The notes beneath the pieces were generated by a model that saw nothing but the letters and a program-made list of their open reading frames with translations, was not told the origin of the DNA and ran no database searches. From Candidatus Azobacteroides sp. (GTDB lineage Bacteria > Bacteroidota > Bacteroidia > Bacteroidales > WRGA01): 64,000 nt of DNA. The stretch is from the NCBI GenBank assembly GCA_021201815.1, contig JAJQEC010000135.1:937-64936 (forward strand), given 5' to 3'. Every line of letters starts with the position of its first letter. Position 1 is the first letter of the stretch. Below, in pieces: positions 21,868 through 33,800 of this stretch. Position numbers and translations under genes: made by a program.

Positions 21868-22848
21868 TTACATTTTCCCCATTATCTTATCGATAACCCG
21901 AGAGGTTCTTGCGCCACTCACCCCGGTAGAAGGGCATTTCCCGTTTCCTCTTAATTCTTCGATAATCGATTGAATGAGGGGCTGCTGGATATGTTGCGGA
22001 TGTTCTGTGGTATAGAATTCCCTGCCTCTATGAGTAGCTAATTCAATAGGTTTAAAAGCGAAGGTATTAAAACGGATATATCCTTTTTCTCCGTTGATTT
22101 CTACTATATCTTTTTCCTCGCCTTCGGCTCCTGCATAATTCCATTGCCCTGTTCCCTGGATACCGGACTGAAATCTGAAAATAGCAGAAACCGTATCTTC
22201 AACCGGATACAGGTTTCCAAGGTTTGCGGAGAATCCTTTCGCTTCTGTGATTTCCCCCAATAGAAAGTCGAGGATATCCAGTGTGTGGGGAGCCATGTCA
22301 TAAAAATATCCCCCTCCGGCAATTTCTTTTTTTACTCTCCAGGAATGGCTTTCGACGTTTTTATCCGATGGCAAAGGTGCTCTGCTGTATTGTATGGTTA
22401 CGGTTTGAAGTTTACCTAATTCATTATTATCCAGTAATTCTTTTACTTTTAAAAAATAAGGAAGCGTCCGTCTGTAATAAGCCACAAAGAGCTTCCGGTT
22501 TGTCTCTTCCGCTACTTTCAGCATTTCCAGGCATTCCGGATAATTCATCGCCATGGGTTTTTCTACGTATACGGTTTTTCCGGCACGCATGGCTTTAATG
22601 GCATATTCTTTATGGCTTTCCGGGGGAGTAGCGATGTAAACAGCATCTATATCCGGATTTAGGATGATTTTGTCTGCTTCTGAATAATAAGAAGGTACTC
22701 CATGCCTTAACGCAAAGTCTTTTGCTTTCTGGTTATCTCTCCGCATGACAGCCACCAGAGAGGAATGTTCCGATTTATAAAATGCCGGTCCGCTTTTTAC
22801 TTTACAGACATCTCCACAGCCGATTATTCCCCAGCGTATTTTATCCAT
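21868..22848 (-). CDS. Gfo/Idh/MocA-family oxidoreductase
   Basis: N-terminus IRWGIIGCGDV; conserved EKPMA motif (VYVEKPMAMN). Confidence 0.85.
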   Translation of the reverse strand: MDKIRWGIIGCGDVCKVKSGPAFYKSEHSSLVAVMRRDNQKAKDFALRHGVPSYYSEADKIILNPDIDAVYIATPPESHKEYAIKAMRAGKTVYVEKPMAMNYPECLEMLKVAEETNRKLFVAYYRRTLPYFLKVKELLDNNELGKLQTVTIQYSRAPLPSDKNVESHSWRVKKEIAGGGYFYDMAPHTLDILDFLLGEITEAKGFSANLGNLYPVEDTVSAIFRFQSGIQGTGQWNYAGAEGEEKDIVEINGEKGYIRFNTFAFKPIELATHRGREFYTTEHPQHIQQPLIQSIIEELRGNGKCPSTGVSGARTSRVIDKIMGKM

Positions 22849-22863
22849 AGATAATTAATGTGT

Positions 22864-23904
22864 TTATTTTCCCTCCCATACTAATGCACTGGCTCCTAAT
22901 ACTGCCGCATCCGCATGGTCATTGAGGGCTGAAATTTCAATTCTGGTTTTCCCCTGATAGATATTTAATAAAGACTGATTCATATATTTTCTTACCGGAT
23001 TTAATAATAAGTCACCGGATTTTACTAATCCGCCAAAGAGCACAATCATTTCCGGGTCGGAGAAAGCAATATAGTCTGCCATGGCTTCACCCAGGACTTT
23101 TCCTGTATATTCGAATATTTCATGCGCCAGCAGATCTCCTTTTTCCGCATATTCTGCTACATCTTTGGAGCATATAAGGAGGTCTTCTTTGTATCCTTCC
23201 TGTTGTAATGCAAGCAGCCCTTTCTTTTTTCTGGCATCATAAATTTGTTTCAGGTTGCTGGGGTTATCTTTTTTACTTACTTCCAGAAATTCAATTGCTG
23301 TACGCGCAAGTCCTTTTGCTGAGACGTATGTTTCCGCACACCCGTATCTTCCACATCCGCATCGTCTGCCTCCGTTTCTTCTTACGATGATATGTCCCAG
23401 TTCTCCGGCCAGGCCATTATGTCCTCTTATTAGTTTTCCTTCGGCAATGATACCGCTTCCTAATCCGGTGCCCAAAGTAATCATAATAAAATTCGCTACC
23501 CCTTTTCCTTTTCCGTATTTCCATTCTCCTAAGGCAGCAACGTTCGCATCATTATCAAGGGAAGTAGGAAGATTGATTTTTTCTTCCATCATTTTTACGA
23601 TTTCGATTTTCTCATCGCTCCAGGGAAGGTTCGGGTTCTTTTCAATCGTTCCGGAGCGATAACTGGCTGTAGGGGCTCCGATTCCGATTCCTTCTATCTT
23701 ATTTAAAGTAAGAATTTCTTTTTTTTCTTCGATCAGATCTTCTATATTATTACATAAGGCAAGGATAAAATCTTTTACGTTTTTATGTTGATGAGTACGT
23801 ACCGGATTTTCCCGGTTGGATACGATGATTTCTCCGTTTTTATCAACAATTCCGATTGTTGCACTTCCTCCTCCGATATCAATTCCAACAGCGTAATCTC
23901 TCAT
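22864..23904 (-). CDS. ROK-family sugar kinase (glucokinase-like)
   Basis: AVGIDIGGGSATIG ATP-binding motif. ROK Zn motif GHIIVRRNGGRRCGCGRYGCAETY. Confidence 0.85.
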   Translation of the reverse strand: MRDYAVGIDIGGGSATIGIVDKNGEIIVSNRENPVRTHQHKNVKDFILALCNNIEDLIEEKKEILTLNKIEGIGIGAPTASYRSGTIEKNPNLPWSDEKIEIVKMMEEKINLPTSLDNDANVAALGEWKYGKGKGVANFIMITLGTGLGSGIIAEGKLIRGHNGLAGELGHIIVRRNGGRRCGCGRYGCAETYVSAKGLARTAIEFLEVSKKDNPSNLKQIYDARKKKGLLALQQEGYKEDLLICSKDVAEYAEKGDLLAHEIFEYTGKVLGEAMADYIAFSDPEMIVLFGGLVKSGDLLLNPVRKYMNQSLLNIYQGKTRIEISALNDHADAAVLGASALVWEGK

Positions 23905-23937
23905 AAAGGTGCTAGTTAATAAATTTAATAAATAAAA

Positions 23938-25251
23938 TTAAAATTCTATTTTTACTTTAGGTTTCAGGTTATCTTCCATTGTCCAGAAGTAAGCTTCTCC
24001 ATGGGGAATATAAAATAATACTAATTCTTCACTATCGGCAGTCATTCCGAATTCTTTTAAAAAAGGTCGGTCTTCCAACGCTTTTTCTTTATATTTTCTT
24101 TCATTCAGGAATTCGGTTTTACCGGCAATTCTCAGCATAGTTCCTAATCCTTGTTCCGGTTTGTAAAAACAAACTTCCACGTTCGGGTTTTGTTGGAGTT
24201 GCGCCGGGATTTCCTTCACGGAAGCGGTTTGGAAATAAAACCCTGTTTCGTCTGCAAACCAGAATCCCAGTGCCCTTACCCGGGGCCGGTCATTTTCTAT
24301 GGTTGCCAGGTAACAAACCGGATTTGCATTGGTGAATTGAATGCAATCTTGAATTGTCTTCATATTATTTGTTTTTTTATATGGTTTTTCTAATAATTCA
24401 TGTATTTTCTGAGCTACATCTTCCATAAGCCACTTGGGAGTAGAAGTTGCGCCACTGATGCCAATGGAAGAAATATTTTTAAGATCGTCTTTCCGGATAT
24501 CACTGGGTCCTGAAATTCTTATGGAATTAGGATTTGCGTCTTTACATTCTTCATAGAGTATTTTTCCATTGGAACTTTTTTCTCCACTTACAAAAAAAAC
24601 AAGATCATAGGCTGAAGCGAATTTCCTGATATTGGGTATCCGGTTTGCTACCTGCCGGCATATCGTATCGAAATATTCGAAATCAACATCTCCGTTAATT
24701 CTTTCTTTTATTTCTTTGATAATTTCCGAAAATCCTTCCAGGGATTTAGTGGTCTGTGAGAATAATTTTATCGGCCGGGTAAAATCAATACGGGAAAGAT
24801 CTTCCGGATTCTCGATTACAATTGCCTGATTCTGTGTTTGTCCGACCAGGCCATTTACTTCGGCATGTCCGGCTTTCCCATAAATTACAATTTGTGTATC
24901 CTTAGGATTTCTGTTATCATACGTCTTTTTTATTTTCCGTTGCAATTGTAAAACCACCGGGCATGTAGCATCAATAATACGGATGTCATTTTCTTTTGCG
25001 ATGTGGTAGGTGGAGGGAGGCTCTCCATGTGCTCTTAAAAGCACTTTCGCATGTTTCAGCTTGCTGAGCCGGGCATGATTAATACTGACCAGTCCGATGG
25101 ATTTCAGGCGCTCTACTTCATAACTATTATGCACAATATCTCCGAGGCAATATAAAATTTCATTATTCTTCAATTCATTTTCAGCCTGATGAATTGCATT
25201 TACTACTCCGAAACAAAAGCCGGAACCCTTTTCTATCTCGATTTTTACCAT
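23938..25251 (-). CDS. ispH: 4-hydroxy-3-methylbut-2-enyl diphosphate reductase (IspH) fused to a C-terminal PNPOx-like FMN-binding split-barrel domain
   Basis: IspH Cys motifs GFCFGV, ATCPVV, DTICRQV and the IspH C-terminal signature GATSTPKWL. The reading frame then continues without a stop into about 141 aa (coded 24363 down to 23938): MKTIQDCIQFTNANPVCYLATIENDRPRVRALGFWF.... Confidence 0.85.
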   Translation of the reverse strand: MVKIEIEKGSGFCFGVVNAIHQAENELKNNEILYCLGDIVHNSYEVERLKSIGLVSINHARLSKLKHAKVLLRAHGEPPSTYHIAKENDIRIIDATCPVVLQLQRKIKKTYDNRNPKDTQIVIYGKAGHAEVNGLVGQTQNQAIVIENPEDLSRIDFTRPIKLFSQTTKSLEGFSEIIKEIKERINGDVDFEYFDTICRQVANRIPNIRKFASAYDLVFFVSGEKSSNGKILYEECKDANPNSIRISGPSDIRKDDLKNISSIGISGATSTPKWLMEDVAQKIHELLEKPYKKTNNMKTIQDCIQFTNANPVCYLATIENDRPRVRALGFWFADETGFYFQTASVKEIPAQLQQNPNVEVCFYKPEQGLGTMLRIAGKTEFLNERKYKEKALEDRPFLKEFGMTADSEELVLFYIPHGEAYFWTMEDNLKPKVKIEF

Positions 25252-25633
25252 TTTAGTTGATTCGTTCTACAAATGTACAAATTATCTCCTCTGTTGTTTT
25301 CATTTAATGGAAAAGATAAAAAAATAAATTTTTATAATGGATTTTATACTAAAACTATTACTTTTGGCGTTTATATTCTGAAACCTGTGAAAAAATAACC
25401 CATTTGCCCACTTACGATACCAGCATGAAACAAGTTTCAATTTTTACAGTTATTATTTATTACTCTTTTTTAATTGTTTCCTTAATCTATGCTTTTACTT
25501 TTTTATTGTTTTATATTCCTTGCAGAGCAATAAATAAAATAAGAGAAAAGACAGTTGCAATGAAGTCAGATGCTCCAAAGGTATTTAATCATGGCTTGCC
25601 GGATTTTCTGAGTATTAAGCAGAAGAATATGGA

Positions 25634-25969
25634 TTAATTTCCTGTTTTCTTTTTTAAGTAATAAACAAAAGAATAGGGTTTTCGATGAATCAAATAATCG
25701 GAATTCCTGTCATTCTCATATGCTTCTCTTTCAAAGCTTATCTGGAAATAAGCTTCTTTCCCATATAATACTAATTTATAGATCCATTCAAAAAGGTACC
25801 ATACGTAAAACAGAAGGTAAAATAGTTCTTTCATTTGCGCTGAATGAATGGCTTCGTGATTCAGGATGGTTTTTGTAATTATTATCCCTTTCCTGACGAA
25901 TAGGATTCCAAATAAGTTTATGGCAGCAAAATCTTTGGTTGGAATAATATTGTTATATATTAATTTCAT
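25634..25969 (-). CDS. Small HExxH-motif protein (putative mini-metallopeptidase), family not identified
   Basis: LNHEAIHSAQ motif followed by a hydrophobic helix and FEREAYEN (possible third ligand Glu). Confidence 0.5.
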   Translation of the reverse strand: MKLIYNNIIPTKDFAAINLFGILFVRKGIIITKTILNHEAIHSAQMKELFYLLFYVWYLFEWIYKLVLYGKEAYFQISFEREAYENDRNSDYLIHRKPYSFVYYLKKKTGN

Positions 25970-26149
25970 CTTGTGTTTTTTATGTAAACGAAAAGAGGAA
26001 GTATTTGTTTATTTTCCTGATTTTACGGGAGGTATATACTGCATGTTGTTTATTTGAGTAAGTAATAATAAGTGTTTTATTAAAAAATAATAAAATGACG
26101 AGTTTTCATAAGGCCTTATAGGGGTATTCTTTCTGATTCTATTACCTGC

Positions 26150-26515
26150 AATTTTGCGGCTATGAAGCCCCTTCCATTCAACCCGCTTTGGGGTTGAACC
26201 ACCCTGACAGGACTTTCCTTTCCCCCGTTTCACCGAGAAGCATGCGCATTCATCCCTCACGGGATTTTTCCTCAGGGACTGTTTAAAAGAGAATGCACAT
26301 TGGAAATATAAAGCCCGAAGCCCGGCCCGCAGAAAGAAAGACCCTTTGGATATAAACAGGGGCTGAAATGCAACCAGTCTATAGAAGAAGCAAAATTACC
26401 CCGCTGCCCGCAAAACCGCAGGGTTAAATATTTATAACCCCCGGTGAAGCGTAGCGACCGGGAAATGGAAGGTCCTTACACCCATGCAACCCTGAAGCGG
26501 GTTGAATGATAAAAA
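26150..26515. repeat. GC-rich island of inverted hairpin repeats
   Basis: CATTCAACCCGCTT (26174-26187) and AAGCGGGTTGAATG (26497-26510) are a 14-bp inverted repeat. The adjoining ~70 nt are also similar in inverted orientation. Local hairpins CAACCC-n5/6-GGGTTG. Confidence 0.55.
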
Positions 26516-26568
26516 GGTTGTCTCTTTAGATAAAGAGGTGAGATAATAAGTTTACTTTTTGGTTTATA

Positions 26569-27105
26569 TTAATCCATTTTGAAAACAATAGGCAATGTAT
26601 AATGTACATTTACAGCTTCTCCGTTTTCTTTACCTGGAATCCATGCAGGCATTCTTTTTACAATCCGTAATGCTTCCTTATCACAGGAAGGATCAATTCC
26701 TCTTACAATTTTAATGTCGTCAATGGTTCCGTCTTTTTTTACGACAAAACTGACCACAACTTTTCCCTGTATTTTGTTTTCGACGGCAATTGCCGGATAG
26801 ATCAGATTATGAGAGAGGTATTTTAATAAAGAATCTTTTCCCCCTGGAAATTCGGGTGTTGAGGTTACTTCCTCAAAGGGCATTGCTTGTTCCTTTGATT
26901 CGCTTTTTATCGTCCGGGAAATAACATTATCCGGTTCTTTTATTTCGTCTTCCGGCTGGTACCCTTGTTGTGCATGGGAAAATGTGCCTCCGAGAATAAA
27001 GAGAGTGAAAGAAAATAAACACCATTTTCTTTTTAAAATTTTCGTCATAGGATCAAATATGTGGTACAATCTAATTTTCATTTGAGTAAGACAAAGATAA
27101 GCCAA
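26569..27105 (-). CDS. TonB-family energy-transducer C-terminal-domain protein
   Basis: C-terminal TonB fold motifs (PEFPGG...YPAIAVENKIQGKVVVSFVVKKDGTIDDIKIVRG...PAWIPGKENGEAVNV). The probable real start is ATG at 27048 (MTKILKRKW..., TM helix). Confidence 0.8.
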   Translation of the reverse strand: MAYLCLTQMKIRLYHIFDPMTKILKRKWCLFSFTLFILGGTFSHAQQGYQPEDEIKEPDNVISRTIKSESKEQAMPFEEVTSTPEFPGGKDSLLKYLSHNLIYPAIAVENKIQGKVVVSFVVKKDGTIDDIKIVRGIDPSCDKEALRIVKRMPAWIPGKENGEAVNVHYTLPIVFKMD

Positions 27106-27183
27106 ATGAATATATAACGTCTATCATAAAGTGATTAATTAAAAAAGAGCGTTTTATTGATATACTTCATTGCGGTGTTTACT

Positions 27184-27233
27184 AGCCGTGTGCTGAGGCA
27201 GCACGGCTAATGACATGGCGCCACTCTGTGGCT
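27184..27233 (-). repeat. REP-like double-hairpin repeat, copy c (inverted)
   Basis: AGCCGTGTGCTGAGGCAGCACGGCTAAT...GCCACTCTGTGGC is the reverse complement of the pattern at 13271-13318. Confidence 0.6.
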
Positions 27234-27384
27234 TGTCGGTGAGATAGTTGTACCTGTAATTCTAATCCTTTCCTGCCCTGAGAGATAGCAAAATAGTAAA
27301 ATCTGAAAAATCAGAAGTAAAACAGTTACGGAAAACGGATCGGAGAAAAGCAAGGCATCCTTATAGTGACAACATTGCCTTTAA

Positions 27385-27433
27385 AGCCGCGTAGCGGTGA
27401 CAGATAAATAGCCGTGATGCCTCAACACACGGT
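27385..27433 (+). repeat. REP-like double-hairpin repeat, copy d
   Basis: AGCCGCGTAGCGGTGACAGATAAATAGCCGTGATGCCTCAACACACGG. Confidence 0.55.
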
Positions 27434-27445
27434 TCGCTTGGTAGC

Positions 27446-27515
27446 AAAAAAAATGGTTGTCTCCCGACAACCAATCTTTTTATTAACCTTAAAATCTAAT
27501 ACTATGAAAAAATCA
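27446..27515 (-). ncRNA. Candidate ~70-nt sRNA, copy 1
   Basis: On the minus strand: TTTG (27551-27548), 19 bp, TATATTTG (27528-27521), about 55 nt, GGTTGTC-GGGA-GACAACC hairpin (27472-27455), then A + U8. A near-identical unit lies at 29568-29635. Confidence 0.35.
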
Positions 27516-27900
27516 CAATGCAAATATATTGTTGATTTTATTTCTTCCAAAATAAATTTTATCAAATATTGTTAAAGAGAAAGGGGTAAATCGTTAAAGA
27601 TGGTTTATTGCTGTTTAGTGAATGGATGAATATATTAGGAGAGTTAGCCAACAAAAGAGTTTCTCTTTTATCATTTTCTTTTATGGTTTTGTTTTTTTGG
27701 AAATTGAAGAAAGGTATTTTTATTAAAGATGATATGTAAATTTTTTTCTCTAATGGTTTTATTCTTTTTTATAAAAATAAATTATCTACCTAATTGAATA
27801 AAAATACCCTTATAAGCAAAAAAGAATAAAAAATATTTTTGTCGGCTAATTTTTCCACTTATAATGTCAATTTTTACACATCTTTAATAGAAAATACTTT

Positions 27901-27908
27901 TATCTTTG
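27901..27908 (+). promoter_or_regulatory. -7 promoter box TATCTTTG upstream of the first DUF4861 gene
   Basis: TAnnTTTG match about 125 nt upstream of ATG 28033. Confidence 0.35.
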
Positions 27909-28032
27909 CTCTTACTATTAATCTGATAGATTATATATTGCAGAGGTTAGCACAATTCAGTTATATCCGAGATTCGCATTAAACATTATAAGTCTGATTT
28001 TATTTATCTTCATAATAATATAATAATAAACA

Positions 28033-29220
28033 ATGAAAAAAATACTTTATTTTATTTTATCTTCTTTTCTTTTGTTTGCGTGCGGGAATGATGAAAAGTC
28101 GGTAAAAATATCAGTTACCAATGATTCTCCTTTAGAAAGGATAAATGAGATCATTGAAATATCGTGGGCAGATATTAAAGAAAAGTTAGGACTGACAGAT
28201 TCTTCTGTTATTGTAGTTTTAAATGATCAGCAAATTCCTTATCAGTTGATTACAGAAGGAAATAATGAGCCGGAGAAGTTAATATTTCCGGTAAATGTTC
28301 AGGCCGGCGAAACTGTTATCTATACGGTTAAAAGCGGAGATCCCGAAGATTTTACAGTAAAAACATACGGTCGTTTTGTCCCGGAACGGAAAGATGACTT
28401 TGCATGGGAAAATAATAAAATAGCTTTCCGTATGTACGGTCCGGCTCTCTTGCCTATTGATGGCCCGAGTAATGGGATAGATGCCTGGGTAAAAAGAACG
28501 GAAGAAATGATCATTGATAAATGGTATAAAAATGATTTGGCAGGTGTTGCTTCTTATCATATAGATCATGGGGAAGGACTTGATGGGTATAAAGTAGGAC
28601 GTACGCTGGGTGCCGGAGGAATGGCTCCTTTTGTAAATGATACTTTATGGCTTGCAGAAAATTACGTTACTCAGGAATTATTAGATCAGGGGCCGTTAAG
28701 AACATCTTTCAGACTTACTTATAAACCCTTTAATGTAAATGGGGATAGTTCTGTGGTAGAAACTAAGATAATTAGTCTTGATGCCGATTCTTATTTTAAT
28801 AAAGTAATAGAAAAATATCAGGGAATTAAAGCGGCTATTCCTGTAGCAGCAGGTATTGTTTTGAAAACAAATGAAGCGAAACCTGTGGATAAAACAGAAG
28901 ATGCTGATCCTGCTTACAAAGCTGTTTTACAACCGGAAAAAGGATATGTTATCTATGCGGAAACAGCGGATAAAGCTGCTCCTGAACACGATAACGGAAT
29001 TATTTATACGGCCGTTATATTTCCAACTCCTCTTAAAGAAGCTAAATTGGCAGAAAAACATGCTTTGGCTATTGTGGACTATCAACCGGAAGAAAGTCTG
29101 GTATATTACAATGGGGTAGGTTGGAGCAAAGCTGGTTTTAATTCGGAAGAAGAATGGGTAACGTATGTAGATCAATTTGCTGAAAAACTAAGAAGTCCGT
29201 TAAAAGTAAGTTTAAAATAA
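28033..29220 (+). CDS. DUF4861-family lipoprotein
   Basis: Lipobox LLFACG. Signature YGRFVPERKDDFAWENNKIAFRMYGPAL...GIDAWVKR as I recall it for DUF4861. Confidence 0.8.
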   Translation: MKKILYFILSSFLLFACGNDEKSVKISVTNDSPLERINEIIEISWADIKEKLGLTDSSVIVVLNDQQIPYQLITEGNNEPEKLIFPVNVQAGETVIYTVKSGDPEDFTVKTYGRFVPERKDDFAWENNKIAFRMYGPALLPIDGPSNGIDAWVKRTEEMIIDKWYKNDLAGVASYHIDHGEGLDGYKVGRTLGAGGMAPFVNDTLWLAENYVTQELLDQGPLRTSFRLTYKPFNVNGDSSVVETKIISLDADSYFNKVIEKYQGIKAAIPVAAGIVLKTNEAKPVDKTEDADPAYKAVLQPEKGYVIYAETADKAAPEHDNGIIYTAVIFPTPLKEAKLAEKHALAIVDYQPEESLVYYNGVGWSKAGFNSEEEWVTYVDQFAEKLRSPLKVSLK

Positions 29221-29567
29221 AAATTATTTCTTGCTTAAGGATATAGGATCAGTAAAACAAAATAATGAATGTATAAGATATTAGTGGGATTCAATTCACT
29301 AATATCTTTTTTTATACCTGTTTAGCAACTTTCCGGAAAACTCCTGCTTTAATAATATCTCATTTATTCTTTCTACAATGACTGGATGTATGGGATATAG
29401 ATTTTGATTATCAGGTTCCATTAGAAAAAATAAGGATTCATCCCGATTATTTTTACATTCAATGTTGAATTGGAGTTTTCGTTGCTTCCGAAGGTAGATT
29501 TTGTACGGTGAGTTAATTAATTAAAATCTATCTTTTCAGGGATGATATCTACTTTTATGTAATATAT

Positions 29568-29635
29568 AAAAAAAGGTTGTCTCCCAACAACCAATCTTTC
29601 ATTAACCTTAAAATCTAATACTATGAAAAAAATCA
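29568..29635 (-). ncRNA. Candidate ~70-nt sRNA, copy 2
   Basis: On the minus strand: TATATTTG (29648-29641), conserved body, GGTTGTT-GGGA-GACAACC hairpin, then U7. The C-to-T change in the stem keeps pairing as a G-U wobble. Confidence 0.35.
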
Positions 29636-29772
29636 CAGTACAAATATATACATATATTCATATTCCGACAAGGTGAAATTCTCAAATCATGTTAAAGAAA
29701 TAGCGCAAAAATGATAAAAAATATTAATTTTTTTTATTCTACGTATTGTTTGGAAAATATCTTATCAATAAA

Positions 29773-29821
29773 GAAACATAAATCCCGGAAAAGTCTTTCA
29801 CTTTTCCGGGATTTATGTTTC
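29773..29821 (-). terminator. 22-bp perfect-stem hairpin downstream of the second DUF4861 gene
   Basis: GAAACATAAATCCCGGAAAAGT (29773-29794) and ACTTTTCCGGGATTTATGTTTC (29800-29821) with a 5-nt loop. Lies 52 nt past the stop of 29874..31130; a T-rich tract follows on the minus strand. Confidence 0.5.
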
Positions 29822-29873
29822 TTCGTGGCATTCAAGTATATTGTTTATATCGTTTTCCGTAGGCTTTTTTCTA

Positions 29874-31130
29874 TTAATCCCGAAGCATTCTTATTTTAAC
29901 AGGGTTGAGAATATCTTCTTTCCATGCTTCCAGGTATTTAAAAAAGTCTTCCGGGTTTTTATATCCGAATTCTTCTTTTTCTGCAGCAGCCGTAATATAG
30001 TAACTGATCTGGAAATCTTCATTATTATTTAATAGGAAAAGATGATTTACATTATCTTCTACATTTTTTTCACTGATATATTCTTTTGGAACAAATACAC
30101 CTAATCCTACTGTTTCCTTTGCGTATTTTATGGTGTCGTTTACCGGCCAGTCTGTTCCCCATATTCCCAATAATCCGTCGTTGTCTGTGAATAACTCCGA
30201 ATCAGGCAGTTTTTGCACCCCTGTAGCAAATAATATATCTTTTGGAAGCATTTTTACTTCGTCTTCTTCTTTTTGGAACAGAATATTCATCACCTCTACA
30301 TCTCTATGGCCTGCATACATAATATAGCGGCTTACCATAGTGAATTTTTCACCCATATACTCCCAACCGTGAGAAGTCATATCCACAATTGTTCTTACAG
30401 GACCGTTGGAAATTATCCTTGCATCCCTGTTATCTACCGGAGAAATATGGATTGCTTTTTTACCGTTCCAGCCTTTTAGTGTACCTACTCCTACACTTCC
30501 ACTCACCCGGAGGATATCATCCCCGTATTTTTTTTCCAGTTGTTCATCTGTCGGATACCAGTTTGTTTCCTGTAATTCGAGCCTTTTTATTTTTTTTCCG
30601 TATAGATCAACTGTTTGTTTTTGATCAAAGTAAATTCTATAAGCCATTAATTCGGACTCGAAAGCAGGGCCATGGTGATGAAAGGCGTTATAAAGATCTC
30701 CTGTTTCAGATGCTGCGGTAATTACAGGTTTAAAAGATTTTTCAGAGTCTTTTTCCAGTAACTGAGCATGGACTTTATTGGGATATCGTCCGGCCACAGA
30801 TTCTTCTACCGACAATTCAATTTTAAGTTTTTTTGCTTCGAGGGGCTTCATGTTAATTACAAATGCCAATTCATCGAATGTTCCATTCGCATCCAAATCA
30901 TCCAGTTGGGAAGGTATTTCCTGCCTTTTATCCCATACTGTTGCTGATTTTATTATTACATCCGAAAGTTTTAAAACAACGGGGGCATTTTCTTTTGGTG
31001 TATTTGAAAGATTTGTAACAACTATTTCAAAGTTTTTTTTCCCGGCTTCAATGATAAACTGGGCATGTGTAGAAAAGCAAACCAAAAAAGAGAAAATAAG
31101 AAGAAAAGTAATTTTTGTAGTTGATTTCAT
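29874..31130 (-). CDS. DUF4861-family secreted protein, divergent paralogue
   Basis: Signal peptide. N-terminal beta-sandwich-like NFEIVVTNLSNTPKENAPVVLKLSD parallels ISVTNDSPLERINEIIEISWAD of 28033..29220. Core FESELMAYRIYFDQKQTVDLYGKK. Confidence 0.7.
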   Translation of the reverse strand: MKSTTKITFLLIFSFLVCFSTHAQFIIEAGKKNFEIVVTNLSNTPKENAPVVLKLSDVIIKSATVWDKRQEIPSQLDDLDANGTFDELAFVINMKPLEAKKLKIELSVEESVAGRYPNKVHAQLLEKDSEKSFKPVITAASETGDLYNAFHHHGPAFESELMAYRIYFDQKQTVDLYGKKIKRLELQETNWYPTDEQLEKKYGDDILRVSGSVGVGTLKGWNGKKAIHISPVDNRDARIISNGPVRTIVDMTSHGWEYMGEKFTMVSRYIMYAGHRDVEVMNILFQKEEDEVKMLPKDILFATGVQKLPDSELFTDNDGLLGIWGTDWPVNDTIKYAKETVGLGVFVPKEYISEKNVEDNVNHLFLLNNNEDFQISYYITAAAEKEEFGYKNPEDFFKYLEAWKEDILNPVKIRMLRD

Positions 31131-31444
31131 ATGATAGTTGTTTAAAATTTGCTGTAAAAATACGATAAATTATCCTATTCATTTTGTTAAAAGGATAAAA
31201 GAATATTTATAATGAAATGAAAATATTGTTAATAGGATATCTTCATATAAAATATAGTACATACATTTTTTCTAACGGCAAACTTTCCTAATTAATTGCA
31301 AATAAGAGGTTTTGTTAATTTCTGTAATAAAATTCTGAAAGGCAGCCATCTGAATAAGGTATTGAAGAGGAAAATGATTAATTTTGTGCGCTCTTTTGAA
31401 ATAATAAACAGATAGATAAATAAAGGAACAATAAAAACTTTAAA

Positions 31445-32074
31445 TTGTTTAATGGTTTTAGGAGTGGTGTGCTTTCAAAAAAAAGAATCGTGAAATTAAA
31501 AAAGGTATGTATATATTGCTCTTCGAGTTCACAAATAGAAAGTGTTTATTTTAAAGATGCGGTGCGTCTGGGGCATCTACTGGCAAAAAATAAACTGGAA
31601 GGTATTTGTGGGGGTGGGGTACAGGGACTAATGAGAGCTGTATCCGATGCTGTAATCGAAAAGGGCGGTAAGATGACAGGAATAATTCCTCGTTTCATGT
31701 ATGAGGAAGGCTGGGGAAATGCTACTCTGAGTGAAGTCATAATCACCACTTCTATGCATGAGCGCAAAGAGAAGATGGCCAAAGTAGCAGATGCCATTAT
31801 TGCTTTGCCCGGAGGTTGCGGTACGTTGGAAGAACTCCTGGAAATTATCACCTGGAAACAGTTGGGCATTTTTAGCGGGCCTATTGTTATTTTAAATACA
31901 AATAAATATTTTGACCCGTTACTTGAAATGCTATCGAGAGCTATTAAAGAAAATTTTATGAGAGAAAATCAGGCAGCTATATGGTCTGTTGCAGAAACTC
32001 CGGAAATAGCAATTGAAAAAATCTTATATGCAGAAAACTGGCTAGAAAATCCCAGGCAATTTGCATTAATTTAA
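31445..32074 (+). CDS. LOG-family (TIGR00730) nucleotide phosphoribohydrolase
   Basis: PGGCGTLEELLEIITWKQLG motif. The real start is probably the in-frame GTG at 31490 (VKLKKVCIYCSSS). A -7 box TAATTTTG lies at 31379-31386. Confidence 0.85.
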   Translation: MFNGFRSGVLSKKRIVKLKKVCIYCSSSSQIESVYFKDAVRLGHLLAKNKLEGICGGGVQGLMRAVSDAVIEKGGKMTGIIPRFMYEEGWGNATLSEVIITTSMHERKEKMAKVADAIIALPGGCGTLEELLEIITWKQLGIFSGPIVILNTNKYFDPLLEMLSRAIKENFMRENQAAIWSVAETPEIAIEKILYAENWLENPRQFALI

Positions 32075-32086
32075 TTACTAATTTTT

Positions 32087-33022
32087 ATGCCAGATAGTTT
32101 ACACTTTTCTTACCCTTTTTTACAGAGTTTCCGGAATAAGAAAGTTCTTTCAGAAGATAAACAGGATAATCTTATATTGCAAAATGATTCTTCTTCTGTT
32201 TCATCTTCCTCTCTTCCGCCTATTTTTTCTTTTTCCAATGATGAGGACATAAATTATCTGGAAAAGCCGGAAAATTTCTTTTTTTCTTTTACAAAACCTT
32301 TTAATACTGAAAAAAGATTGGAGTATGAAGGAATATTAAGACCATATTCTTTTAAAATGTCCAGCGGAATTACTTTTTTGATGCTTATTTGTTTCTTCCT
32401 TTTTGTTATTATTTATAAGAAAGGAGGAGATTATATAGTACAGATGACCCAAAATTTGTTTGGCCAGACAGAGAGAGATAGTATTTTTGTTGATAGTACG
32501 ACCAGTAGTGAATATCAAATTAAGTTTTTTTTGCTTCTGCAGTCTACTATTTGTCTGGCTGTGTTTTTCTTTATATTTATAAAATCATCGGCTGGAAGTA
32601 ATGTCTTTTTGCCGGATAAGTATATAATTATTAACTTATTGTTAGGAATTGGAGTCATTCTTATATTCTGGTGCCTGAAATGGTTAATGAATAAGTTTAT
32701 CGGTTATATATTTTTTGATAATCAGCTTACGGAAAATTGGCAAAGTAATTATTTTTTCGCAATTGGCTTACTTGGAACTTTATTTTTCCCCGTTTTACTA
32801 TTTATAATAAATGCTCAGAATGAGGTATTAATCCATCTTTCAACAAATCTCTTTTTTCTTTTGTTCGGTTTAGGTTTTTTAATTTTTGCGTTTAAAGGAA
32901 TTAGGGTTTTTTTAGTAAAACCGTATGGTTTTTTCTATTTTATGTTGTACTTTTGTGCTCTCGAAATAATACCCTACATTGGGCTTTATATGGGGTTAAT
33001 TTATATAACTAACTTCGTTTAA
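32087..33022 (+). CDS. Multi-pass membrane protein, DUF4271-like
   Basis: Six or more hydrophobic helices. Its position directly upstream of hemD matches the conserved Bacteroidota arrangement as I recall it. Confidence 0.7.
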   Translation: MPDSLHFSYPFLQSFRNKKVLSEDKQDNLILQNDSSSVSSSSLPPIFSFSNDEDINYLEKPENFFFSFTKPFNTEKRLEYEGILRPYSFKMSSGITFLMLICFFLFVIIYKKGGDYIVQMTQNLFGQTERDSIFVDSTTSSEYQIKFFLLLQSTICLAVFFFIFIKSSAGSNVFLPDKYIIINLLLGIGVILIFWCLKWLMNKFIGYIFFDNQLTENWQSNYFFAIGLLGTLFFPVLLFIINAQNEVLIHLSTNLFFLLFGLGFLIFAFKGIRVFLVKPYGFFYFMLYFCALEIIPYIGLYMGLIYITNFV

Positions 33023-33035
33023 ATTACTACATTTT

Positions 33036-33800
33036 ATGGCCGTAAAAATAAAGAAACTTCTCGTATCTCAGCCAAAACCGTCATCTGAAAAATCTCCGTA
33101 TTTTGATATTGCAGAAAAATATGGCATTTCTATTGACTTTCGACCTTTTATTAAAGTAGAAGGGGTAAGTGGAAAAGATTTTCGTCAGCAAAGAGTTTCG
33201 ATTTTGGATCATACTGCGGTAATATTTACTGCACGCACGGGAGTTGATCATTTCTTTCGTTTGTGTGAAGAGCTACGTGTAACTGTTCCGGAAACGATGA
33301 GATATTTCTGTGTTACAGAATCTATTGCTTTGTATTTGCAAAAATATATTGTATACAGGAAACGTAAAATATCTTTTAGTAGCACTGGTAAGCTGGAGGG
33401 ATTAATGCCTTCTATTATGAAATATTCTTCGGAAAAATTTTTGTTACCTCTTTCTGATGCACATCAGGATGATTTGACGAATTTGTTGGATAGTAAGAAA
33501 ATTAATTATACCAAAGCTATTATGTATAAAACCGTAAGTAATGATTTTTCTCCTGAAGAAAAATTTGATTATGATATGGTTTTGTTTTTTAGTCCTTCAG
33601 GTATTGCTTCCTTGCTGAAAAATTTTCCGGATTTTGAACAAAACGATTTAAGAATCGGATGTTTTGGAAAAACAACCGCAAAAGCTGTGAAAGATGCAGG
33701 ATTGCAATTGGATTTAGAAGCTCCGACTCCTGCAGCTCCATCGATGACTTCTGCATTAGAATTATTCATTAAGGAAAATATTAAAAACGGAAAGAAGTAA
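33036..33800 (+). CDS. hemD: Uroporphyrinogen-III synthase
   Basis: Size, and HemD-like two-lobed pattern (ILVSQPKP...FTARTGVDHFF...LFFSPSGIASLLKNFP...IGCFGKTTAKAV). Confidence 0.8.
   Translation: MAVKIKKLLVSQPKPSSEKSPYFDIAEKYGISIDFRPFIKVEGVSGKDFRQQRVSILDHTAVIFTARTGVDHFFRLCEELRVTVPETMRYFCVTESIALYLQKYIVYRKRKISFSSTGKLEGLMPSIMKYSSEKFLLPLSDAHQDDLTNLLDSKKINYTKAIMYKTVSNDFSPEEKFDYDMVLFFSPSGIASLLKNFPDFEQNDLRIGCFGKTTAKAVKDAGLQLDLEAPTPAAPSMTSALELFIKENIKNGKK

Follow-up and report, generated by a model that had tools for sequence, protein, structure and literature searches.

Two copies of the FopS small RNA family in a 64-kb stretch of an uncultured Bacteroidales genome

We analysed a pair of short repeats in a 64,000-nucleotide stretch of contig JAJQEC010000135.1 (assembly GCA_021201815.1, Candidatus Azobacteroides sp.), the whole of which we call the window. 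Both repeats are ordinary copies of FopS, an already described Bacteroidales family of small RNAs (sRNAs) that is curated in Rfam and that, in Bacteroides, keeps sugar-transporter mRNAs from being translated. Of the three matches that Rfam 15 gave for the full window at its gathering thresholds, two were to RF04319 (BTncRNA_FopS, titled 'Bacteroidetes FopS, family of paralogous sRNAs'), a family with a gathering score of 56. Copy 1 matched at 27443–27516 on the minus strand with 76.8 bits (E = 1.6e-09) and copy 2 at 29565–29636 on the minus strand with 70.5 bits (E = 2.7e-08), in each case over model positions 1–71 of 71. It is very probable that the repeats are independent minus-strand FopS-family genes, each with its own promoter and Rho-independent terminator, whose RNAs are about 69–71 nucleotides (nt) long. 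A preliminary description, made from the sequence of this DNA alone, had proposed a self-contained sRNA gene of about 70 nt with its own promoter and terminator; the full-length matches to a family whose sRNAs have been shown experimentally (PMC11697453) bear this out.

Sequence inspection and a repeat search showed that the repeats are direct and about 82 nt each (27448–27529 and 29568–29649). Read on the minus strand, both copies consist of TATATTTG, 4 nt, GUGAU(6–7)CAUAGUAUUAGAUUUUAAGGUUAAU, a short A-rich linker, GGUUGU(C/U)-GGGA-GACAACC and a run of eight (copy 1) or seven (copy 2) U residues. In pairwise alignment their identity is about 93%, and they differ in length by 1 nt at two places, the 5′ U-run and the linker. 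Their 24-nt core occurred at these two sites only in the window when up to three mismatches were allowed, with 0 sites expected from 100 shuffles. The features of the two genes are as follows.

27446..27516, minus strand: fopS copy 1, a predicted sRNA of about 71 nt (5′ GUGAUUUUUUCAUAGUAUUAGAUUUUAAGGUUAAU...), RF04319 match 27443–27516
29568..29636, minus strand: fopS copy 2, a predicted sRNA of about 69 nt, RF04319 match 29565–29636
27494..27516, minus strand: copy 1 seed (model positions 1–21), the equivalent of R1/R1′ of Bacteroides thetaiotaomicron FopS, containing the anti-start codon CAU
29613..29636, minus strand: copy 2 seed, with one extra U in its 5′ U-run (Rfam alignment and pairwise alignment)
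27521..27528, minus strand: copy 1 −7 box TATATTTG, of the Bacteroidota sigma-ABfr type (sequence inspection)
29641..29648, minus strand: copy 2 −7 box TATATTTG (sequence inspection and alignment)
27548..27551, minus strand: −33-like TTTG of copy 1, 19 nt upstream of its −7 box (sequence inspection)
27446..27473, minus strand: intrinsic terminator of copy 1, with a hairpin at 27455–27472 (8 pairs including a flanking U–A pair) and U8 at 27446–27453 (terminator scan)
29568..29592, minus strand: intrinsic terminator of copy 2, with a hairpin at 29575–29592 and U7 at 29568–29574 (terminator scan)

In both copies the −7 box lies 5 nt before model position 1. For copy 1, the 5′ end was placed from model position 1 and this box, and the 3′ end from the U-run. 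A −7 box before the predicted 5′ end and a Rho-independent terminator closing the predicted 71- and 69-nt RNAs are as expected of FopS. The perfect TAnnTTTG −7 box on the minus strand of both copies, the TTTG 19 nt upstream in copy 1 and, in both copies, the 7-bp GC-rich hairpin with a GGGA loop and a tail of seven or eight U residues had all been pointed out in the preliminary description, and we read each of them at the positions given above; at the −33 position of copy 2 stands a degenerate CTTG. The hairpin is GGUUGUC-GGGA-GACAACC in copy 1 and GGUUGUU-GGGA-GACAACC in copy 2, and the sole difference in the stem preserves pairing, as had been described, with the loop-closing C–G pair of copy 1 replaced by a U–G wobble in copy 2. 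Both hairpins were called as minus-strand terminators by the scan, which placed nine terminator-like sites in 27000–30000 where 1.3 were expected. In the minimum free energy fold, most of the first 33 or so nucleotides are unpaired, apart from a weak 4-bp hairpin that pairs nt 1–4 with nt 10–13 and includes the CAU.

The possibility that the copies are orthologues of GibS, a longer relative of FopS with two seeds, has some basis in weak matches of the GibS model to 27346–27514 and 29568–29633, the first of which also covers a second hairpin downstream of copy 1. However, these matches scored only 37.6 and 29.4 bits, where the gathering score is 115, and contain no R2 seed, the promoters in the window are canonical, unlike the PM2 motif of gibS (PMC11697453), and the 'second hairpin' of copy 1 is a separate repeat resembling a repetitive extragenic palindrome (REP). 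Over the GibS and BTnc231 models together, the window copies scored 25–38 bits against thresholds of 80–115. We regard orthology to GibS as exceedingly improbable.

The preliminary description had suggested searching the genome and Rfam for homologues. Beyond the assignment of both copies to RF04319, a scan of a collection of species-representative genomes with the exact 25-nt core TCATRGTATTAGATTTTAAGGTTAA found it in at least 120 Bacteroidales stretches. The matches listed included Muribaculaceae (among them Sangeribacter), Porphyromonas gulae, P. loveana, P. gingivicanis and P. endodontalis, as well as Paludibacteraceae, Paludibacter, Dysgonomonas, Microbacter, Tannerellaceae, Bacteroides, Phocaeicola, Mediterranea and Prevotella. 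At 17 of 17 representative loci from at least seven family-level groups, RF04319 scored above its gathering score at the core site (59.6–78.6 bits). A TAnnTTTG box stood at the expected distance in 112 of 116 copies anchored on the core. When we aligned 50 diverse members, the 5′ 29 nt were invariant, as was the core (27483–27507 in copy 1 coordinates), and the linker and stem were variable; RNAalifold recovered the terminator stem, with compensatory double changes at all seven of its seven predicted pairs. The 5′ U-run ranges from 5 to 7 residues across the family, and the 5′ variant of the window, GUGAUUUUUU, is shared with a Paludibacter metagenome-assembled genome (MAG; L025), a Microbacter MAG (L074) and two Joint Genome Institute metagenome contigs (L124 and L125). 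These alignments show that the seed is under extreme purifying selection and that the terminator stem covaries. One canonical FopS gene (L120, 3883–3950, 66.3 bits) lies on a contig assigned by binning to the Firmicute Bulleidia sp.; this is most likely a mis-binned Bacteroidales contig.

The same conservation bears on whether the repeats might be dispersed bidirectional terminators, or REP-like intergenic repeats, that yield no RNA product. The hairpin is indeed bordered by an A-run and, at its opposite side, by T-rich sequence, terminator-like sites were also called on the plus strand (27454–27473 and 29575–29592), and other REP-like GC-rich hairpin repeats lie beside copy 1 (27184–27233 and 27385–27433). 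Yet it is the 45-nt AT-rich 5′ region, not the hairpin, that is most conserved, and the stem varies with compensatory changes; the correctly spaced promoter upstream of nearly all members likewise argues against a bare terminator. On the plus strand, moreover, the copy 2 tail AATCTTTCAT is a poor U-tract, and the first DUF4861 gene (DUF4861a) has its own terminator at 29275–29308. We therefore consider a terminator or REP-like repeat with no RNA product very unlikely.

A small peptide, started from the plus-strand ATGAAAAA or encoded by a small open reading frame (sORF) on the minus strand, would also make the repeats something other than sRNA genes. The plus strand offers a start context, AAUACUAUGAAAAAA, that resembles the Bacteroidales consensus, with open frames of about 17–23 codons. 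The preliminary description had argued against a peptide from the fact that the plus-strand frame is not kept between the copies, and this argument holds: the copies read ATGAAAAAATCAC and ATGAAAAAAATCAC, and lose their common frame beyond codon 3 owing to the variable A/U run, whose length also varies across the family. Downstream, the frame enters the non-conserved promoter region, whereas the RNA of the minus strand offers only GUG-AUU-UUU-UCA-UAG. The plus-strand ATG is the mirror image of the seed CAU, and sORFs were excluded for the FopS loci of B. thetaiotaomicron (PMC11697453). A peptide product is accordingly a most improbable reading of the two repeats.

A mobile origin was considered in two forms, namely that the repeats are the ends, or solo ends, of a longer multicopy mobile element, or that they belong to a recently inserted phage-borne cassette. 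FopS-like sequence, 79–90% identical to a window copy, lies unannotated in four phage records (MT836368.1, PQ571285.1, which is Bacteroides phage BX-TP2, MT836359.1 and MT837453.1), in agreement with the one phage copy reported for the family, from which phage-mediated spread was suggested (PMC11697453). The copies also have in common linker and stem sequences that vary from one taxon to another, a pattern that fits recent duplication or homogenization. Against this, alignment showed that the similarity between the copies stops about 82 nt in, beyond which there is only a 22-nt block upstream of the promoter, and neither alignment nor repeat search found terminal inverted repeats or target-site duplications. 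None of the 10 flanking open reading frames (ORFs; 21868–33800) matched transposase or integrase families, and they include housekeeping genes (IspH, ROK, TonB_C, LOG and HemD). The copies are direct repeats, yet the nearby DUF4861 genes are convergent and unrelated in sequence. The preliminary description had named the end of a longer mobile element as the finding that would overturn its proposal; the extent of similarity of about 82 nt speaks against it, and we judge a mobile-element or cassette origin to be highly unlikely. Tight tandems of two or three FopS genes, 220–660 nt apart, occur in other genomes (L065 at 1122–1657, and L026, L047, L066, L091 and L113), one example being three copies in a Dysgonomonas MAG, which indicates that local clustering such as that seen in the window is common.

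Considering what is known of the family, we infer transcription in this organism, mRNA targets, a role for RbpB and an inducing signal by analogy, and the action of the two genes would be the following. Two primary transcripts of about 70 nt would be made from their own Bacteroidota housekeeping-type promoters on the minus strand. The CAU-containing seed would pair with certain envelope or transporter mRNAs, encoded elsewhere in the genome, at start regions of the AUGAAAAA type; this pairing would occlude the start codon, so that the first gene of the operon would be translationally repressed. A protein with an RNA recognition motif (RRM), RbpB, would probably antagonize the repression.

Several results weigh against this account of the window copies. 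A regular-expression search found no RNP1 motif and no RRM/RbpB-like gene among the ORFs of the 64-kb window, which also contains no susC/susD pair of the kind that marks a polysaccharide utilization locus (PUL), and seed–target prediction over the 33 gene starts in the window gave no outlier. No public sequencing runs were listed for 26000–31200 or for DUF4861a alone that might bear on expression of the predicted sRNAs. If the host is a termite-gut bacterium, its natural signal cannot be bile salts, the reported inducer in B. thetaiotaomicron. Finally, aligning the seeds to model positions 1–21 showed an insertion of 2–3 nt after GUG, so that the 5′ ends of the window copies (GUGAU6–7CAU) are longer than the B. 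thetaiotaomicron consensus GUGUUUUUCAU and the exact seed register could differ.

The target search itself was carried out in three ways. RNAduplex with the 45-nt 5′ region against all start regions in the window gave a flat distribution from −8 to −20 kcal/mol, typical of AU-rich sequence. In a sliding scan with a 26-nt seed, the only outliers were the antisense strands of the sRNA genes themselves, and the best other site reached −16 kcal/mol and lay away from gene starts. When pairing was registered on the start codon, the top score was 23 of 30 positions, for the gene of a 609-residue DUF6383 protein (start 1436) and for the TonB_C gene beside copy 1 (start 27048); this value is within the spread of the other gene starts, and we did not accept it as evidence for any local target.

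Each copy lies near genes with a DUF4861 domain, as the preliminary description had observed. Copy 1 is placed between a TonB_C-domain gene (26569–27105, minus strand) and DUF4861a (28033–29220, plus strand), and copy 2 between DUF4861a and the convergent DUF4861b (29874–31130, minus strand); the copies therefore flank the first DUF4861 gene, with copy 2 between the two, and Pfam confirmed the domain in both proteins (E = 1e-88 for DUF4861a and 3e-104 for DUF4861b). A functional tie to DUF4861, which had been raised by proposing a target prediction against these genes, found no support: the DUF4861a start paired at 21 of 30 positions, no better than other gene starts. Using tblastn with ten neighbouring proteins, we found no DUF4861 gene beside FopS in any of the 120 related loci among the matches listed, and blastp revealed no significant similarity between DUF4861a and DUF4861b (E = 0.25). 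Because of these results, and because DUF4861a has a terminator of its own (terminator scan), the position of the FopS copies beside the DUF4861 genes appears incidental. TonB_C genes lay near FopS in only two of the same 120 loci (L003 and L045), approximately the chance expectation, and a conserved gene association of FopS was rejected.

The only possibly new item in this analysis is a GTTAAA/TTAAC element upstream of FopS promoters. In 109 non-redundant regions of 120 nt upstream of FopS −7 boxes, GTTAAA occurred 83 times against about 3 expected, being present in 58 of the regions and concentrated 51–70 nt upstream of the −7 box, although shared ancestry of the copies could inflate this and the following motif counts, even though the surrounding sequence has diverged. 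Tandem GTTAA-N5–7-GTTAA was found in 32 of the 109 regions (0.3 expected), and the inverted repeat ATGYY-N4-RRCAT in 45 of them (1.2 expected), mostly 31–40 nt upstream of the −7 box. Both window copies carry a candidate site of this kind.

27571..27576, minus strand: copy 1 TTTAAC half-site (GTTAAA on the plus strand), 42 nt upstream of the −7 box, a candidate regulator site, with a second copy at 27593–27598
29691..29696, minus strand: copy 2 TTTAAC half-site, 42 nt upstream of the −7 box, a candidate regulator site

In the subtype to which the window copies belong, the reverse half-site TTAAC keeps a distance of exactly 42 nt upstream from the −7 box in four out of four members, namely both window copies, L124 and L125, and it stands 32 nt upstream in L025 and L074; most other carriers instead have the GTTAAA tandem or the ATGYY-N4-RRCAT palindrome. 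The upstream element resembles an operator and may be where a FopS regulator binds. We put forward, tentatively and as the less probable outcome, that Bacteroidales FopS genes, the two window copies included, are co-regulated by one DNA-binding regulator acting at an operator, (AT)GTTAAA or ATGYY-N4-RRCAT, at fixed distances from the promoter. FopS is also present in Bacteroidales of the mouth and rumen and in those known from uncultured MAGs; on this reading, the signal to which the family first responded would be a general cue from the envelope or nutrients and not bile salts. The regulator behind FopS induction was stated to be unknown in the paper that described the family (PMC11697453), and so sharply positioned a motif would be a handle for finding it.

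The remaining neighbours of the two genes are housekeeping genes by Pfam (GFO oxidoreductase, ROK kinase, an IspH–PNPOx fusion, LOG, DUF4271 and HemD). In the fusion gene (23938–25251), IspH (LytB) is joined in frame to a PNPOx-like FMN-binding domain. GC-rich, hairpin-rich non-coding islands at 27160–27445 and 26150–26515 flank copy 1 and the TonB_C gene, and one of them includes a 22-nt inverted repeat spanning 290 nt (26175–26196 and 26487–26508); neither island matched Rfam, even at E ≤ 1. The DUF4861b stop codon is followed, after about 50 nt, by an inverted repeat (29771–29823) of 24 perfectly paired bp around a 5-nt loop, much longer than the other terminators of the region. Elsewhere in the window, a cobalamin riboswitch (RF00174, 6581–6801, 76 bits) precedes a TonB-dependent receptor operon. 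Logan unitigs carrying DUF4861a in SRR15221351 and SRR15221322 were identical to the window over 27483–29630 and 27483–29627, indicating that the same organism is present in both runs. Both unitigs stop inside both sRNA genes, at a shared 31-mer where the assembly graph branches; this is the effect of a repeated 31-mer on such a graph and fits a multicopy sequence.

The discovery value of the two loci is low, given that Rfam-based annotation would name both of them FopS and that the mechanism is already understood from B. thetaiotaomicron; for both, annotation as an sRNA gene is secure. In that species, Rüttiger et al. (Nat Commun 2025) described 14 FopS paralogues, each with a canonical sigma-ABfr promoter, and observed bile-salt-induced bands of about 65 and 70 nt on northern blots (PMC11697453). 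In-line probing, electrophoretic mobility shift assays and compensatory mutations showed that the 5′ seed, which is single-stranded, base-pairs at the start codon of susC(BT_3983) and of further genes that open PUL operons, and FopS-10 blocked in vitro translation, a block that was relieved by the RRM protein RbpB (PMC11697453). A 2026 review gives the same picture (PMC13750123). Whereas Rüttiger et al. describe the family for Bacteroidaceae only, as highly conserved there (PMC11697453), the exact-core matches and Rfam place FopS in many Bacteroidales families; by extension, repression of transporter mRNAs by mimicry of the translation start is probably an order-wide trait in Bacteroidales.

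Compared with GibS (RF04182; Ryan et al. 2020), the window copies share the R1 seed at the 5′ end, but GibS is about 142 nt long and has a second seed (R2), extra hairpins and the non-canonical PM2 promoter, and the window copies fall far below its threshold. They differ from B. thetaiotaomicron FopS in having GUGAU6–7 in place of GUGU5 (2–3 extra nt) and an extra U in GAUUUUAAGG, and in belonging to an uncultured, AT-rich Bacteroidales host (36.6% GC). As for number, Bacteroides species carry 12–15 FopS copies per genome, and two lie in the 64-kb window, more than one copy here as well. The window copies otherwise resemble B. thetaiotaomicron FopS closely: they share the 5′ seed UUUUUCAURGUAUUAGAU, each has a canonical TAnnTTTG promoter, and in each a terminator hairpin comes after a single-stranded 5′ region, with a predicted length of about 70 nt.

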